From positions 1 to 7,201 of the IMG/VR virus record IMGVR_UViG_3300029310_000130: 7,201 nt of DNA. The stretch is one strand, 5' to 3'. The position numbers were made by a program, and so were the translations under genes. Below the pieces are notes generated by a model. That model did no database searches, had not been told where the DNA came from, and was given only the letters and a program-made list of their open reading frames with translations. Source of the stretch: a virus (Duplodnaviria > Heunggongvirae > Uroviricota > Caudoviricetes). How positions within the stretch are numbered: position 1 is the stretch's first letter; every line of letters starts with the position of its first letter. Positions 1 to 7,201 of the stretch are shown piece by piece.

Positions 1-1846
1 ACTTCTTATGAAGTGCATCACCAACAAGTCGTCGTTGCTTATTGAGATTTGCATAAGTTAATGCGCCGTTCTTGCCTGGATTAACTGCCCGAAAGACTCT
101 CTTTTCAATAGGGTCAAGGTTTTTCATCCCGCCAAGATCTTCTGCCACCTGTTTGAGCATTGACCTTGTTGATGGCGCATCAATTTTTGCACCTGCAGGC
201 ATCGCCTTTTCAACATTGCGATAAAGCTGGTCGCTTCGTTTCATCAGCGCAGACATTCTTCCATTGATCGTATCAATAAACTTGTCGCTCATACCAAGAG
301 CATCTTTTGCACCGGAAACGCGATCAATTATCTCCCCCGCGCCATGTGCTAGTTGCCTGATTGCTTCATTTTCCTGCACCCGTAGAGCAGAACCCGCACG
401 GGACTTGATTGCTTGCTCAACTGCCTTGTATTGCTCGTTCCCGGAAAAGTGTGAAGGGAGTAATGAATCAACATTAAGCCTTTCAGCAGACTCCAGAACT
501 TCAGCCTGAGGATTGATATCTAGTTCATCAAGCGATGAAGCGAGATTTGGCCTTTTTTGTGCTGCTACTGTGCGAACGACCTCCTCTGGGTCCCTCGCCG
601 CAGGCGTCATTGGTACACCTTGTGCTGCTCTTGCCTCTGCGGCATGAACCGCAGGATTTGTTGCTGCAGCGGCATCACCGGAGAATGGTGATGTTTCTGT
701 TGGCGCAGTACCGGAGAATGGTGATGTTTCTGTTGGCGCAGTGGTCGCTCTCTGTGCAGATGTTTTATTGCCACTAATTATATTTGATGCACCACGAACA
801 CCACGGGTAACGCCATTTATCAGGCCATGCGTAGCAATGTTAAGTCCGGCATTAATAGCGGCATTTTCGGCAAAATCACCCCGTTGATTCGCCGCGTCAG
901 CGAGAGAACCAATGACCATGTTTCCAGCTACTCCTGCTCCAGGAACAAGATAACCGCCTATTGACTCTCCAGCTTGCGCATAAGGGTCTGTCGGTCGATC
1001 TACTGGACGATAGACATCGTCCAAAACCTTGGGGCCACCAAGCCCCTGGCTGATTGCATTAATCAGACTTGCGCCACCCTGCAATACGTCAAATGGTATG
1101 TTTACCAGACCACGACCAGCCTGCTCTGCAATTTGCCCTGCACTTTGACCACCTGTGAGCCAATCGCCAGCTTGTTGCATCAATGATGGTTCTTCACGTG
1201 CTGGTTCATTATTGGCCTGATTAACTGTTTGTTGCTGAACAGGTTTCGGTGCGACAGAACTTACGGGTTGAGGTGGCTGCTGACTGGCTGCCTGCTGCTC
1301 AATCTGAGCAAATGGATTATTTGGGTCTGACTGCACACCTGATGTCGATACTTGTTCGGATGACTGTGCTTCCAGTTGTGCAAACGGGTTGTTAGGGTCT
1401 TGCTGAGGATGTACCTTTGCAGAGGTGGCGCGCTGTTCGACTGTTGAGTCTGTCACCGGGTCACCCGCCCATTGAGCAAAGCGATCATCAACGTAACCGC
1501 GGCCTTCAGGTCCTGGCGTATATTCACCACGCTTTGCCTTCATAACGTTGCCGGGACCGTCGTGATAAGCCTGAAGAGCATCACGCCAGTTACCAAACTG
1601 CTGGTACATCTTTGCCAGATAGCGCGCGCCAGCGTCAGCCTGATATTCGGGGTTTTGCATTTGCTCATCGGTATAACCCATATCACGCCATGTCCCAGGC
1701 ATGACCTGAGTCAATCCTACAGCCCCGGCGGAGCTTACTGCGGCAGGGTTGTAAGAAGACTCCTTGGCACCCAGTGCAGTCATCAACCCTTCTGGCACAC
1801 CGTAACGTGCGCCAGCCTGCTCTAACAAATCACGGTAATTAGCCAT
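1..1846 (-). CDS. Third ejection (internal virion) protein in the P22 gene-16 position, with N-terminal lytic transglycosylase (SLT) domain; partial, 3' end lies beyond window start (at least 615 codons)
   Basis: Not in the ORF track because no stop occurs in-window. Manual translation of the minus strand from ATG at 1846-1844 shows no stop codon down to position 2. Start is TAAATG-coupled to the upstream gene stop (TAA 1849-1847) with a GGGG Shine-Dalgarno about 6 nt upstream. N-terminus reads [62 protein letters not shown]...[12 protein letters not shown]. Position immediately after the gp20 homologue matches P22 gene order 7-20-16. Confidence 0.8.
677..742 (-). repeat. Perfect 33-bp in-frame tandem duplication (2 copies) encoding [11 protein letters not shown] twice
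   Basis: Plus-strand 677-709 (accggagaatggtgatgtttctgttggcgcagt) is identical to 710-742. 33 bp is 11 codons, so the reading frame is preserved. Confidence 0.9.
1256..1399 (-). repeat. Imperfect 72-bp (24-aa) tandem repeat encoding a Q/P/N/S-rich linker
   Basis: Two adjacent 24-codon units both begin DPNNPFAQ(L/I)E: unit 1 at 1399..1328 ([24 protein letters not shown]), unit 2 at 1327..1256 ([24 protein letters not shown]). Nucleotide similarity is visible, e.g. gagcaaatggattatttgggtc vs gtgcaaacgggttgttagggtc. Confidence 0.7.
1487..1819 (-). other. Lytic transglycosylase (SLT family) catalytic domain within the ejection protein
   Basis: Canonical SLT motifs seen in translation: catalytic E-S (AKESSYNP, Glu codon at 1762-1760), GL(T/M)Q-x-MP-x-T ([10 protein letters not shown]) and AY(N/H)xG (AYHDGPGNV). 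Domain borders are approximate. Confidence 0.75.
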
Positions 1847-3178
1847 TTACTGCCCCAAAGATGGAAGATATCCGTAGCGATTAATGAAGTCGATTGACAG
1901 CTCGGGGTGCTGCTTCAGGTAATCTATAGAAGCCTGAGGCGCTTCCACTCGCTTGATACCGTTTTGCTGAACGTACTTACCAACCGCCTCATTACGCTTC
2001 TGGTTGAGCGTGTTCAGGATGACGCCAGCGTTGCGACGAAAGGACTCCTCGCTCTGCGAGTTCTGCAGCGAACCAACAGCCTGGTCGAGCTTTTTGCCCT
2101 CGGCATCAGAAAGTGCGCCCATGCCTCGCATGGCCTGAACCGCTGTCAGGTATGCTTGTGATTTAAAGGTATCAAGTCGTGCCTGAGTGTCTGCAGCCTG
2201 TGAGCCTGGAACGTTGGGGATTACTCCACGTAAGCCTGTAATGCTCTTAAGTGAAGGAGAACTAACGATATCGTTCAGAGTGAACATGCTGGTTGTGAGG
2301 GTGTTGATGCCGTCTTTGTAGCCATCATTTAGCGCTTGCTGCTTCTGCTGCAACTGCTGGTTGTTGGCTGCTATGCGGCTCTGTATTTCCTGGCGCTTCA
2401 GGTCGTTAGTTTCTGCTGATAGCATCCGGTCAAGGCGCTTATTTTCGTTGTTAATGCGGTTTGTTTCTGCGTCCAGATTAATGCGCTGCTGACCTAAATT
2501 CGCCTGGATATCTTGCCCGCGCATTGTGATTGCCTGATTCCGAGCGGCGGTTTGCGAATCCAGATCCTGACCGCGCATGGTAACCTGGCGACCCTGCATT
2601 TTATCCTGTAGGTCAAAGTATTTTTCGGGCCCGAGACTGTTCATCCCCAGGTGATCGACAAATTCGCCGAACTGTCGCGGGTTCTGTTGGTACATCTGAG
2701 CGACGTCATGAGGATTAACGCCAACACGAGCTAACTCACCGGCGTTGTTTTGCAGCCATGATTGCATTGCTTCTGGAGACGATGACGCAAGGCGTGCGCC
2801 AGCCGCTAAGGTGCCGATAGAATTGCGCTGCTCTTCATCAATGAATCCCATGCCTTTACGAACAGATTCAATCTGGTCTGGATATTGAGTAGCCAACTGA
2901 CGCAAAGCACCGCGATCACCAGACGCATAAGCATTAGCGTATGCCTGCTGAAATTCTTTCTGCCGCTGAGCCTGCTTTTCCTGCTGAAACACCCCTGCAA
3001 TACCTGAAAGACCTTGCAAAGCAGTCAGCCCAACATTGTTAGCGCCTGAACGCTCAATATCATTGTTCTGCCTGATAAGCTGAAGCGTATTGCCGATGTC
3101 ATTTACGCTCGGAGCGTTTGAGTTGACGCCGCCGATACCAGCTAACAATCCGCCATTTGATCCTTGCCAAGTAGCCAT
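1847..3178 (-). CDS. gp20: Ejection protein, P22 gp20-like (443 aa)
   Basis: ORF-track ORF with ATG at 3178-3176, preceded by TAAGGGGTAATC (gp7 stop then GGGG Shine-Dalgarno). Sits between the gp7 homologue and the third ejection protein as in P22. Q/N/A-rich with predicted coiled-coil character (LQQKQQALNDGYKD...). Size is close to P22 gp20 (about 470 aa as I recall). Identity is by synteny and composition rather than exact sequence recall. Confidence 0.75.
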   Translation of the reverse strand: MATWQGSNGGLLAGIGGVNSNAPSVNDIGNTLQLIRQNNDIERSGANNVGLTALQGLSGIAGVFQQEKQAQRQKEFQQAYANAYASGDRGALRQLATQYPDQIESVRKGMGFIDEEQRNSIGTLAAGARLASSSPEAMQSWLQNNAGELARVGVNPHDVAQMYQQNPRQFGEFVDHLGMNSLGPEKYFDLQDKMQGRQVTMRGQDLDSQTAARNQAITMRGQDIQANLGQQRINLDAETNRINNENKRLDRMLSAETNDLKRQEIQSRIAANNQQLQQKQQALNDGYKDGINTLTTSMFTLNDIVSSPSLKSITGLRGVIPNVPGSQAADTQARLDTFKSQAYLTAVQAMRGMGALSDAEGKKLDQAVGSLQNSQSEESFRRNAGVILNTLNQKRNEAVGKYVQQNGIKRVEAPQASIDYLKQHPELSIDFINRYGYLPSLGQ

Positions 3179-3187
3179 GATTACCCC

Positions 3188-3880
3188 TTAAAACAACGAG
3201 CCAAGCAATCCGATACCAGCACCAATTCCAGCGCCCCAAGGTGTTGATGTTCCCAAAAGGCTGGCAAGACCTGCACCGGCAATCGCACCAGACGTGCCAC
3301 CGCTAATTGCAGTCTGAAGACTTGATGGTTTATTGGCATTAGCAGCGGCAAGAGCTGCGCTTTGCTGTGCAATGCTGCTCATGTTGTTGGCGTACGTCTG
3401 CCCGGCGTTTGCCTGACCTTGCAGCGCACCAAGCCCAACGTTTGCCAGATTGTTGTAATTGCTCATCTGATTTGATAACCAAGACTGACCGAGTGTCGGC
3501 GCGATCGTAGCCAGTTGATTGCTTGTGGCTGTCGAACCAAGTCCACCCGTCGCCTCCGCAGCAGCAAGACTCTGGTAACGCGCCTGACCTGCAAGGTCTT
3601 TATACTGCTGAGAGTTGTAATACTGATTAAGTGCCTGCCCCTGACCTTCTAAACTGGAAAGATTCTGAAGCTGGTTAACATACTGCTCCGCAAGCGGCGT
3701 GAACGGAGCAAGGTTTTTCATGATCGTCTGCCACTGCTGATTTTGCAGGTCTGCGGCATACTTCTGAGCTTCTGCTGCATACTTTGCGCTTTTATCAGAG
3801 CTGCCACCTTTCCCGCCTTTTTCAGGACAATAAGGTTCCTCGCTGCGCAGTTTTCTGCCCAGCTTAAATGCATATAACAT
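3188..3880 (-). CDS. gp7: Ejection protein, P22 gp7-like (230 aa)
   Basis: N-terminus MLYAFKLGRKLRSEEPYCPEKGGKGGS matches my recollection of the P22 gp7 N-terminal leader region. Gly/Ala-rich C-terminal tail (GAGIGAGIGLLGSLF). ATG at 3880-3878 with GGGAGA Shine-Dalgarno upstream. Length matches P22 gp7 (about 229 aa). Confidence 0.85.
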   Translation of the reverse strand: MLYAFKLGRKLRSEEPYCPEKGGKGGSSDKSAKYAAEAQKYAADLQNQQWQTIMKNLAPFTPLAEQYVNQLQNLSSLEGQGQALNQYYNSQQYKDLAGQARYQSLAAAEATGGLGSTATSNQLATIAPTLGQSWLSNQMSNYNNLANVGLGALQGQANAGQTYANNMSSIAQQSAALAAANANKPSSLQTAISGGTSGAIAGAGLASLLGTSTPWGAGIGAGIGLLGSLF

Positions 3881-3882
3881 GG

Positions 3883-4338
3883 CTATCTCCCGTGATTCAG
3901 GAAGTCGATTAGTTCTTCGCGTGTGGCGCTGTAAAACGTCACGTCATCCACGCCTTTGAAGTATTTCTTGATGGTTCCTACACGCTTAAGGCCAATCATT
4001 GCGCAGTACATCTGCCCGTGGCGGAATTTGCGTGCAGCGAACGATGTGACGCACTGAACGGTGGTGTTAGTCAGAATGTATCGCCAGAACGCCAGACCGA
4101 TTTCCTTGCTGAAGCCGCGAATCTCTGGCAGGTACATGGCGTGGCAATCGAATGTAAGAGGCTGAATTTCCTGATAGTAAACAATGCCGCCGAACTGCCC
4201 GTGCACGTTCACCTCAAAGTAACGGCATTCAGGTTTGTAGTCGTATCCATCACCGTTGTTGCTCCCGGAGATAATGTCAGGGTGATTTCCTACTGCTTCG
4301 ATCAGGTCGATGTTTCGCGTTGGTTTGAATGTAATCAT
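3883..4338 (-). CDS. Protein in the P22 gene-14 position (151 aa); presumed virion-assembly/ejection accessory protein
   Basis: ORF-track ORF whose ATG (4338-4336) overlaps the gp26 stop as TGATG. Lies between the tail needle and gp7 genes exactly where P22 gene 14 sits. I cannot confirm sequence identity to P22 gp14 from memory. Confidence 0.6.
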   Translation of the reverse strand: MITFKPTRNIDLIEAVGNHPDIISGSNNGDGYDYKPECRYFEVNVHGQFGGIVYYQEIQPLTFDCHAMYLPEIRGFSKEIGLAFWRYILTNTTVQCVTSFAARKFRHGQMYCAMIGLKRVGTIKKYFKGVDDVTFYSATREELIDFLNHGR

Positions 4339-5039
4339 CAGTCAATCAGCCCATGTAATCTAAGTGCTGTTTCAAGCGCCAGAATACGCTGCCGCGCCTG
4401 CTGCAAACCTGTAGCGAGAGCTGCGACTTCGGATTGTGTGTACGTAGTGCCGACCGTGTATGACTGGTTAGCGTTGAATGAGCCAAGAAGTGGCGTACCT
4501 GTGGCTGCAGTCCATCCGGTCTGTCTTGCTCCAACGACCTGAATTCCATCAACTGAATATGATGTTTTTACATCCAGCGGTGACGCAAGAGACTGCGATT
4601 CGGTTACAGTTTTCGATACGTAATCACTCTTAATGTCAGATACATCGCTTTCTACGCCATCCAGTCTTTTGTCAACAGTGACCAGATGCGCCTGAATATC
4701 GATAACCTCATCCAGCAAGTAATCAACATCGCTACGCAGTACGACTATCTTCCCTTCGGCGGTTGTTAACCTGACCTCAAGTAGATTTATCGCTTTTGTG
4801 TTTGCGGTGATTCTTGCGTCGTGATCAGCCAGTTCGACGTCCTGTTCATCGTTTTTCACCTGAGCATCGTAAGCGCCCTGACCAGCCTGATTTGCCTTCC
4901 CGGCAATTGCGCCAACATCAGCTCCCTGATTTATGACATACAGCAGATAAGACTGGCTGAATATATTGCGTGGCAAAATTGAAGCATCAAGGCGCGTAGC
5001 CTGAACCGCGACAGGATTATTCAGTGATGAATCCGCCAT
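4338..5039 (-). CDS. gp26: Tail needle / plug protein, P22 gp26-like (233 aa)
   Basis: N-terminus [73 protein letters not shown] and C-terminus ...[13 protein letters not shown]...[34 protein letters not shown] closely match my recollection of P22 gp26. Same length as P22 gp26. ATG at 5039-5037 overlaps the gp10 stop (TAATG). Confidence 0.9.
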
Positions 5040-6395
5040 TACTCAATCCTTATCTGGCAGCCAGACAGAGTGACAGGTGACTTCGTGATAACGCGCAATT
5101 TGAAGCCGACATTTTTCCTGATGCGCCCGACCCGCTTCCACAAAACGCGTTTGTCGTAAACGAACGGTTCATTCTGCTCAATCATCTGCTCACGACCGTA
5201 ATTTATGCCGTCAGTGGTTGCAGAGAGGAACAGGCGGTCAGCATACTGCGCAACGCCAGTTGAAGATTCAACTTCAAGGTCGAAAACTCTGGCGTTATCC
5301 GCTTTGAACAGTGGAGTAAACAGCAGGTGTTCCTGCTGCTTGTCGTACTGGCTGCTGATGTCGAATTGCAATTTCCCGGTCACGGAATCCAGCTTATCGC
5401 CGCACGTTATCTGATTGCCTTCGTAAATGAAGTCGATAGCGCGGTACACATCGTCATACAGGCCTGTTTTCAGTACACACCATTGCGGACCATTGGCGCT
5501 TGAAGATGCGTCGTACACCAGAACATGGCGCGGAAGGTGGATAATCAGCAACTCATGCGCATCAAATCGCAGAGACTCCATCACGCCATCAGCCAGTTCA
5601 TCAGCAGTGTAGGAGCGGAGGATTTTCTCAATGCTCGCGCTGGCGATTGGTGACACCTGACCGGAGCCGATAATGTATACAGACGGCGCACCCGTTGCCG
5701 GATTGCTGATAAACGCATAGGAATCAGCAAACGGCGTTTTGCAGTAAGTTCCGGCGATGCCTTTTTGCACCATCAGTGATGGCTGTGCGACATACAAAGC
5801 AGCACCAACGGTGGTTGCGCCAGTCAGGGAGAAATATTCAATCGTCGATGAACCAAAGCAGACGATGAAGTCTCGCCATGTGCCGATACCGATGATGCCG
5901 TCAGGCTGCGACTCGGCACGATATTGTGCGCTGTATCGGTCAGGGTGCGATTCGTCTTCAAGATCAGTGATAAACCATGAATCAGTGCCGTCTTTTGACC
6001 ACGCATAACGCCCACGTAAGCGTGTAATGTCGCGGACTGAACCTAACTCATACTGTGTGAATCCGCTGTCTGTAGGCCAGTTTGAGACGGTTTTAACCGC
6101 GCCATCATAGCGATACTCGACCAGTTGACCATTAACGCCTACCGCCTGTGATGTCCGACCATGCGCCATTGATACGCGACCACTTCCGGCAACATCACCA
6201 ACCTCGCTTTCTCCTTTGTACAGTTTGCCACCACATACGCGATAAACAGCACTCTGCGCCATGTTGTACTCGACGCCGCGAGATACACCGTTCACATCAG
6301 AACGTTTGGCAATGCCCGGGAATGAGCGAAGATATCCGCTGCTGTTNNNNNNNNNNGCCGACACCTTTCATAAGCGGAAGTTGCTGAATAGGCAT
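5039..6395 (-). CDS. gp10: Tail hub / packaged-DNA stabilisation protein, P22 gp10-like; interrupted by a 10-N gap near the 5' end
   Basis: The 441-aa track ORF ([15 protein letters not shown]...[17 protein letters not shown]) matches my recollection of P22 gp10 and is close in length to it. The true start is the ATG at 6395-6393 (overlapping the gp4 stop as TAATG), encoding [13 protein letters not shown] before the N-run. The GTG at 6364 used by the ORF track is an artefact of the gap. Confidence 0.85.
6347..6356. other. Assembly gap (run of 10 N) inside the gp10 coding sequence
   Basis: Ten consecutive n characters. The reading frames on either side of the gap are offset by 1 nt, so the true missing length is not 10. 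Confidence 0.95.
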
Positions 6396-6895
6396 TATTC
6401 GCTCCCGTTATCGCAAGGTTCCTTTCGGTGGAAGTAATTCCAACCATTCCACTTCGCCAACTGGTTACCACTACCAACAGGCATACGGTTTGGATAACCG
6501 GACTTACATTTAGCTGCTTTTGCCCTGTCCATTGCAGACAGTTTGACGAGTCGCTCTTTCCCGTATCTGGCAGTGGTTATAAGTTTTGCAGACGCTTCCA
6601 GCGCATAATCTGGAGCAATTCGGCAGGCAAGGTTGAAAATGACGGCATTGATAGCGTTATTTGATAAGCCGTGCTCATCGCCCGGATCTGGAGCGACATC
6701 TGCATCAGCGAAAATGTAGCCAACGTTGATACCAGGTGACGCATCACCTCCAAGCCATTCAGCCATCATCATTTCAAGGTCGTTGACGCCGTCTTCCATA
6801 GACTGCGGTTCGACATCGGTTAACGTGGCATTTGATGCCACACCGAGCTTACGTAATGCCGCAAGGACTAAATCACCCTTCGTTGTCAGGTTCAT
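6395..6895 (-). CDS. gp4: Head-completion / tail-adaptor protein, P22 gp4-like (166 aa)
   Basis: [47 protein letters not shown]... resembles my recollection of the P22 gp4 N-terminus. Start chosen at ATG 6895-6893 (AAGG Shine-Dalgarno at 6908-6905, 9-nt spacer), giving 166 aa like P22 gp4. The longer track ORF begins at a TTG at 6961 and is rejected. Confidence 0.85.
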
Positions 6896-7201
6896 CTGCT
6901 GCCGCCTTAGGTTTTCGACTAGGCTTTTTACGCTGTTTTTTTTCTGGCTCTGGCTCTGCAATGGCCGGACGCAAACTCAGGAGTCGTCCAAGAACATCAT
7001 TTGCTTCATGACCATCCCACTCTTTCCCGAACTCAAGCTCAGTACCTTCAGGAAGGAACTCGATTTCTTCAACAGGTAGGTGATAAGTGATTTCGCCTTC
7101 TGGAGTGGTGATACCAGCAATGATCCAGCCATCCCACTCTTCACCGTCACTGTGTTTGCGAGACCACCACGAAAGCTCAGCGTAAGCATGCATCAGCGAT
7201 G
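6873..7201 (-). CDS. Hypothetical small acidic protein upstream of gp4; 5' end may lie beyond the window
   Basis: 106-aa track ORF from ATG at 7193. The frame stays open upstream to the window edge, so the true start may be outside. Composition: 24 Asp/Glu vs 13 Lys/Arg, with the first 66 residues 17 acidic vs 3 basic. Repeated EWDG motif (EEWDGW, KEWDGH). Basic tail [13 protein letters not shown]. Stop TGA at 6875-6873 lies 23 nt inside gp4. Function not recognised. Confidence 0.55.

Follow-up and report, generated by a model that had tools for sequence, protein, structure and literature searches.

Two exact, back-to-back copies of a 33-nt unit lie in the gene for a phage ejection protein, and they raise three linked questions: whether the second copy is real, how it arose and spread, and whether the longer protein that it encodes makes any difference to the phage. 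The repeat was analysed in a stretch of 7,201 nucleotides, here called the window, which comprises positions 1 to 7,201 of IMG/VR record IMGVR_UViG_3300029310_000130. We consider it likely that the duplication is an in-frame minisatellite allele that the protein tolerates in a variable connector, and that this allele was founded once, spread by recombination, is able to lose or gain a copy and is probably neutral or nearly so. The sections below take up the repeat and its gene, the copy number among relatives, the protein segment that holds the repeat, and the haplotypes from which a history can be drawn.

The duplication and the gene that carries it

Tandem Repeats Finder (TRF) reports a period of 33 nt at window positions 677–742, with 2.0 copies, 100% matches and zero indels, and pattern matching places the unit, ACCGGAGAATGGTGATGTTTCTGTTGGCGCAGT, exactly at 677–709 and 710–742. 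Allowing up to three mismatches reveals no further site in the window, and none of 200 dinucleotide-preserving shuffles yielded a match to the unit. On the minus strand, which is the coding strand, the first copy in gene sense is 710–742 (codons 369–379) and the second is 677–709 (codons 380–390); the duplication is in frame and doubles an 11-residue unit at aa 369–390. An earlier note, made from the sequence alone, had described a perfect 33-bp in-frame tandem duplication at 677–742, and TRF, exact matching and translation all agree with that description. The arrangement, head-to-tail copies of a unit with a length divisible by three (33 nt x 2.0, 100% identical), is that of an in-frame coding minisatellite (VNTR). 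The period is broken at both ends of the array (676 differs from 709, and 743 from 710), which leaves an array of exactly 2.0 copies without terminal microhomology; a search for microhomology at the ends of the duplication of the 33-nt unit likewise found none. The left flank, 659–676, does match the 3′ end of the unit at 11 of 18 positions (binomial p ~0.001), but this similarity is unconvincing as evidence of mechanism because the terminal bases are mismatched and the context is rich in Ala codons. A plus-strand ORF of 80 aa (535–777) overlaps the repeat and was judged spurious, as it lies wholly inside the well-supported minus-strand gene and has a low-complexity translation. An Rfam scan of window positions 1–2000 on both strands gave no match to an RNA family.

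The gene occupies positions 1–1846 of the minus strand, starts with an ATG at 1846–1844 and continues beyond the left edge of the window. Its frame is open throughout the 615 of 922 codons that lie inside the window, the full extent being taken from the 922-aa full-length versions in L024 and CFSAN064035. Pfam matches identify the window as a virion module of the P22 type (genus Lederbergvirus), in P22 gene order on the minus strand, with domains for gp4 (P22_Tail-4), gp10 (Phage_stabilise), DUF2824 at the gp14 position, P22_gp7 (3188–3880, minus strand) and Inj_translocase (gp20; 1847–3178, minus strand). In this module, a run of 10 N at 6347–6356 indicates a gapped or masked record, and what was suspected to be a 62-nt deletion in gene 10 is in fact this run.

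Beginning at 1846, the gene stands directly after the homologues of gp7 and gp20, as a P22 gp16-type gene should. Its product also resembles such proteins in sequence, matching phrog_770 'DNA transfer protein' with E=4e-115 and, as a second PHROG, phrog_21143. BLASTP and an alignment of homologues delimit a conserved gp16 N-terminal core at aa 221–353 (788–1186, minus strand); in the full-length relative L024, residues 221–353 are 81% identical to residues 53–189 of P22 gp16. The Pfam model PF26808 (Phage_P22_gp16) is precomputed on close relatives and was absent from the matches of our local Pfam scan. Ahead of the core, an N-terminal SLT lytic transglycosylase domain (aa 7–110; 1517–1828, minus strand) is recognized by PF01464 with E=2e-25 and a score of 89 bits, against a curated cut-off of 21.3. 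Its E-S motif, GAKESSYNP, aligns to ARQESAWNP of Slt70, in which the Glu of this motif is the catalytic residue. By position and sequence, then, the gene belongs to a P22-like prophage and encodes a gp16-type ejection protein with an SLT domain added at its N-terminus. The assignment of the repeat to an ejection protein gene, also proposed before, is borne out by the position after gp7 and gp20, the match to phrog_770 and the 81% identity to the P22 core.

In P22, gp16 is present in the virion, is ejected and forms part of the DNA channel (bioRxiv 10.64898/2026.09.03.749273; PMC10461980), and SieA exclusion acts on both gp16 and gp20 (PMC10461980). The N-terminal region of P22 gp16 (residues 1–205) has been modelled together with the periplasmic tube of gp20, facing its C-terminal domain, and the cytoplasmic-membrane part of the channel has been assigned to gp16; the P22 core equivalent to aa 221–353 falls within the gp20-facing N-terminal region (bioRxiv 10.64898/2026.09.03.749273). 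The window-type protein shares gene position and core with P22 gp16 (PF26808, PHROG 770) but differs from it in three respects: it is 911 or 922 aa long rather than 609 aa, it adds the N-terminal SLT domain and ends in a C-terminal module that cannot be aligned with P22 gp16, and it contains the 11-residue unit, which the P22 protein lacks. Much closer are the products of the two phages nearest to the window, the 'transglycosylase' of Sf101 (AII27837.1) and ATN92735.1 of APC_JM3.2, which have the same architecture and whose genomes are 98.8–99.4% identical in nucleotide sequence over window positions 3–1850. A more distant parallel is the internal core protein gp16 of T7, likewise an ejection protein with an SLT-type N-terminus: residues 3–112 match it weakly (7eyb_I, E=0.003), and no similarity is detectable beyond the SLT domain. 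T7 gp16 has 1318 aa and is part of an ordered core stack (PMC8954989).

Copy number among related phages and prophages

The earlier suggestion that copy number could vary between related phages is supported by the homologues, which carry either one copy or two. Sf101 and APC_JM3.2 each carry one copy, in proteins of 911 aa, and neither carries two. Among 5426 complete E. coli genomes, 51 carry the segment; one of these is cut by an IS element, and the 50 that can be scored divide into 44 with one copy and 6 with two. IMG/VR contigs with the exact unit (n=18) comprise 15 one-copy and three two-copy forms. Two metagenome contigs have two copies, found in a search by the copy junction only, which places one-copy forms outside its reach, and the draft NCBI assembly GCA_024700435.1 contributes one two-copy and no one-copy allele. 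The unit is also present in 14 protein-cluster representatives, as a single copy in every one. In species-representative genomes, the copy junction had no match and the unit itself was found only in E. coli and Shigella flexneri, once in each. Three or more copies of the 33-nt unit were seen in none of the collections. With two-copy frequencies of 12–17% in databases that are unevenly sampled, the two-copy allele is an ordinary circulating length variant, present in about one-sixth of related prophages. It is already present in annotated public genomes. One copy prevails, and the homologues do not uniformly carry two diverged copies, the pattern that would have spoken for an old duplication.

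Direct inspection of fetched alleles (30 one-copy and 12 two-copy, the window counted) confirms that copy number differs among homologous alleles, as expected of a VNTR, and adds a near-isogenic pair that differs in it. Eight of the 12 two-copy forms, including the window, consist of exact copies (P+P); in the other four, the copies differ by one base (A+P), and the variant copy is always the first in gene sense, at 710–742. Both the P and the A form also occur as single copies. Exact P+P alleles were found in E. coli 203740 (Mali), WCHEC050613 (China) and PK8217 (Pakistan), and A+P alleles in CFSAN064035 (UK) and in FDN-24 and FDN-9 (USA), FDN-9 being assigned from its matching pattern, which is the same as that of FDN-24. 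In all, the two-copy structure recurs with identical end points in 11 other independently assembled sequences. Six complete E. coli chromosomes are among them, as are contigs from IMG/VR (three) and from metagenomes (two) and an NCBI draft assembly; one of the contigs probably duplicates a chromosome.

A spacer that varies in length

The repeat lies in a variable spacer that separates the C-terminal module from the conserved core (about aa 354–420; 587–787, minus strand), delimited by the end of P22 gp16 homology, by alignment and by composition. BLASTP homology to P22 gp16 stops at aa 353, and the 33-nt repeat begins 16 residues later. Among homologues of 41–59% identity, the spacer resists alignment and is of variable length. 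Residues 361–401 are made up to 76–86% of P/T/S/G/A/E/Q, which, together with the SLT-to-core connector, is the highest proportion in the protein. A Thr/Pro/Ser-rich setting had been noted before, and the segment is indeed rich in Pro/Thr/Ser/Ala, as well as poorly conserved. An AF2 model of the 615-aa window protein, based on a 13-sequence alignment, is poor as a whole, the SLT domain included (mean pLDDT 36.5); at the repeat it shows coil with the lowest pLDDT of the model, which is a weak hint given the overall quality. A sequence search of solved structures returned matches to the SLT domain only and none over the repeat region. Composition, variability and the very-low-confidence AF2 model together suggest that the repeat region acts as a flexible connector. 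By analogy with the P22 protein, the repeat would sit at the joint between the gp20-facing core and the membrane part of gp16. The unit peptide itself is well conserved in close relatives, in which only P/A, T/A and S/P changes occur, and this conservation leaves room for a specific role of the motif.

A second length-variable repeat is found in the same spacer. Immediately downstream of the 33-nt repeat in gene sense, a 30-nt unit encoding ATNPAVHAA[A/E] is present as a single copy in the window (639–675, minus strand). It is bracketed there by a 7-nt direct repeat, GCGGCAT, at 639–645 and 669–675, a classic substrate for slipped mispairing. Related alleles carry two copies of this unit (L013, L015) or three (L014 and the protein P0001). 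The doubled copy ends in AAE in L013, whereas the multiplied copy ends in AAA in L015 and L014, and at least two separate expansion events of the 30-nt unit must therefore be assumed. The 30-nt unit expands independently of the 33-nt unit. Through one repeat or the other, the spacer naturally accepts 10–20 extra residues (+10, +11 or +20).

Such recurrent lengthening could mean that selection favours a longer spacer, perhaps one that suits a particular gp20 partner, envelope geometry or exclusion system. At least three independent in-frame expansions (+11, +10 and +20 residues) fall within 25 codons, no allele in the sample expands both the 33-nt and the 30-nt repeat, the segment lies, in a protein that forms a channel, between its conserved core and its membrane module, which it connects, and both gp16 and gp20 are targeted by SieA. 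Yet the great majority of alleles have just one copy of each unit, the N-terminal module varies among two-copy alleles with no visible association, and slippage-prone sequence in a tolerant spacer, exemplified by the 7-nt direct repeat around the 30-nt unit, explains the same pattern. We therefore regard adaptive tuning of length as unlikely. A related and rather doubtful proposal is that the spacer may serve as a length-adjustable tether, lengthened by 10–20 residues via either of the two adjoining repeats. Were this so, length might matter for the joining of the gp20 tube to the gp16 channel or for escape from SieA, and the repeats would form an evolutionary tuning knob for DNA delivery. As matters stand, the repeat leaves the current picture of phage DNA delivery unchanged.

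If the duplication is a tolerated allele, the extra 11 residues would lengthen the Pro/Thr/Ser/Ala-rich connector that links the conserved core with the divergent module at the C-terminus. Because this connector accepts +10 to +20 residues, the duplication most probably has little or no effect on fitness. Nor does the locus behave as a contingency locus, that is, a phase-variable simple-sequence repeat: the unit is 33 nt long and every allele is in frame.

Probable origin and spread of the two-copy allele

Haplotypes were tabulated for 41 alleles, each taken with 400 nt of flanking sequence to either side. Two linked SNPs, 581C and 592C (581–592), are present in all 11 two-copy alleles with enough flank and in the one-copy allele L021; they occur in none of the 29 other one-copy alleles. 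Taken together, the linkage to 581C/592C, the identical end points and the lack of microhomology argue for one founding duplication, and the data thus point to a single origin of the two-copy alleles. The A+P and P+P alleles have a common downstream haplotype, and the upstream haplotype of A+P differs from position 736 on, inside the first copy, which is the pattern expected of an exchange within or beside the repeat. Further upstream, two-copy genes fall into two types. The window, CFSAN064035, FDN-24 and L024 have an SLT-type N-terminus, and 203740, WCHEC050613 and PK8217 have a short non-SLT N-terminus, so that the repeat is preceded by about 368 or about 195 residues. Even among SLT-type genes the background has diverged, L024 and CFSAN064035 differing at 27 of 2113 aligned nt (1.3%). 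Occurrence on diverged backgrounds and with different N-terminal modules implies that the two-copy allele has circulated long enough for shuffling.

Within the lineage of the window, copy number has changed much more recently. The one-copy L021 (911 aa) differs from the window at 1 of 1813 nt and from the two-copy L024 (922 aa) at 2 of 2736 nt, the 33-nt indel aside in both comparisons. This near-isogeny implies that a copy was gained or lost very recently in this lineage. A derived 598C is found in the window, L021, L024 and L029; 598T is found in the rest of the two-copy alleles and in every one-copy allele apart from L021. The near-isogenic pair fits either direction of change, L021 being a contraction or the ancestral state. 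Beyond the founding duplication, at least one extra event is required: either L021 underwent contraction, or an identical duplication happened a second time, or an exchange took place between 598 and 677. We consider contraction between the two exact 33-nt copies the simplest option for L021.

These comparisons qualify the claim in the earlier note that perfect identity of the copies implies a very recent event. Recent gain or loss in the window's lineage is upheld by L021, at 1 of 1813 nt. Identity as such, on the other hand, says little about age, because two copies of 33 nt would often stay identical at a few percent divergence; the two-copy allele is moreover not private to the window, its backgrounds have diverged by 1.3%, and a variant with one mismatch exists.

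The exactness of the copies and the existence of a near-isogenic one-copy L021 would also fit a private de novo duplication in the window's genome that matches the other two-copy alleles by coincidence. This is very improbable, as L024 and L029, each 2 of 1846 nt from the window, share its sub-haplotype (598C, PAARD reading) and already have two copies, and all two-copy alleles share 581C/592C and the same end points with no microhomology to steer a recurrence. The same two relatives tell against an assembly artefact, in which an assembler would have made the second copy of a sequence that is single in the true genome. The note had raised this possibility, and the 10-N run does show that the record is not finished sequence. 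However, the identical structure, down to its end points, recurs in the 11 other independently assembled sequences, six complete chromosomes among them, and a 66-nt repeat is not a typical target of collapse or expansion because it is shorter than ordinary sequencing reads; the chance of an artefact is accordingly slight in the extreme. Equally hard to credit is an ancient duplication in which gene conversion, or selection acting on both copies, has prevented divergence, for although A+P shows that the copies are able to differ and the unit peptide is conserved, most relatives, the closest phages included, have one copy, the two-copy state is limited to one SNP haplotype, and the unit is unrecognizable in more distant homologues.

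For the favoured account of a tolerated, recombination-spread allele, the following history can be proposed. One illegitimate duplication of 33 nt, without terminal microhomology, would have taken place on the 581C/592C haplotype. Homologous recombination among Lederbergvirus prophages of E. coli and Shigella would then have spread the two-copy allele, which now stands, on this account, behind both SLT-type and non-SLT N-terminal modules. A single exchange or mutation in the first copy may have produced the A+P variant. Where two exact 33-nt copies are present, slipped mispairing or unequal exchange could remove one of them again.

In these respects the locus resembles protein-coding minisatellites (in-frame VNTRs that vary by slipped-strand mispairing or unequal exchange), with head-to-tail units in multiples of three and a copy number that varies between near-identical alleles. 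It differs from them in that the 33-nt unit occurs in only one or two copies and in that its founding duplication, unlike the 30-nt unit, lacks flanking microhomology. A literature search for the 33-nt polymorphism or for an SLT-bearing gp16 in P22-like phages found nothing specific. The repeat is an ordinary VNTR of the in-frame coding type.

The ejection protein is poorly understood, and the repeat shows where it naturally accepts 10–20 additional residues. Because the site coincides with the joint at which the conserved core meets the divergent module at the C-terminus, it may be useful for placing tags or for domain-boundary constructs. In typing, the repeat could help to tell apart closely related Sf101-type prophages. 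For annotation, full-length ejection proteins measure 911 aa in Sf101 and L021 and 922 aa in CFSAN064035 and L024, a difference of exactly 11 residues, and the copy number of the 33-nt unit explains these two lengths in otherwise near-identical proteins.

Mosaic joints and the SLT domain of gene 16

Among the relatives (loci L021-L028), one identical 443-aa gp20 is followed, depending on the genome, by a gp16 variant of either 911/922 aa or 797 aa. Near positions 1229 and 948 of the window, homology to many relatives at the nucleotide level breaks off, and both break points are sharp mosaic joints within gene 16. In this P22-like prophage, the N-terminal part of the gp16-type ejection protein includes an SLT transglycosylase domain, in which the E-S motif is present (window 1517-1828, minus strand); Sf101-type genes for such SLT-bearing gp16 proteins are an exception that is already in the databases. 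The SLT domain is joined to the conserved gp16 core by a Gln/Pro-rich connector, which holds an older, diverged in-frame repeat of two 10-residue segments lying 24 residues apart (aa 150-183, window about 1298-1399, minus strand).

Repeats and flanks of the 33-nt unit

The 33-nt repeat is adjoined by a second in-frame repeat at window 639-675, the 30-nt unit of which codes for ATNPAVHAA followed by Ala or Glu. The window holds one copy of this unit, flanked on both sides by the 7-nt direct repeat GCGGCAT, and the relatives L013, L014, L015 and P0001 (three loci and a protein) have two or three copies. These expansions arose in at least two independent events. The left flank of the 33-nt unit also resembles the unit itself: window 659-676 matches the unit's last 18 nt (692-709) at 11 of 18 nucleotides in the same 33-nt register. 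This similarity may be left over from an older period, or it may provide a weak substrate for slippage.

In E. coli PK5074, an IS3-family element truncates the homologous gene (L009:1519-1605). Its junction lies at most 1 bp from the upstream edge of the 33-nt unit, a single case that may be a coincidence.

Partial and pseudogene records of gene 16 in relatives

Many Shigella flexneri draft assemblies stop within gene 16, so that their partial proteins are 389-576 aa long. On many E. coli chromosomes, the gene is annotated as a pseudogene without a C-terminus, yet DNA homology runs on. Taken together, these records (proteins P0003-P0007, P0013 and P0018; loci L003, L005, L006 and L014-L020) suggest either frequent disruption of gene 16 or an effect of the annotation reference.

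Other features of the window

Within gene 10, which encodes the tail hub, a run of 10 N (window 6347-6356) replaces about 72 nt found in the near-isogenic loci L021 and L024, and the gene 10 ORF appears N-terminally truncated by this run (441 versus 472 aa). The run is a scaffold gap or a masked stretch rather than a deletion. In the gp7 homologue, TRF reported an imperfect repeat of two 21-nt units with 86% matches (window 3750-3791).
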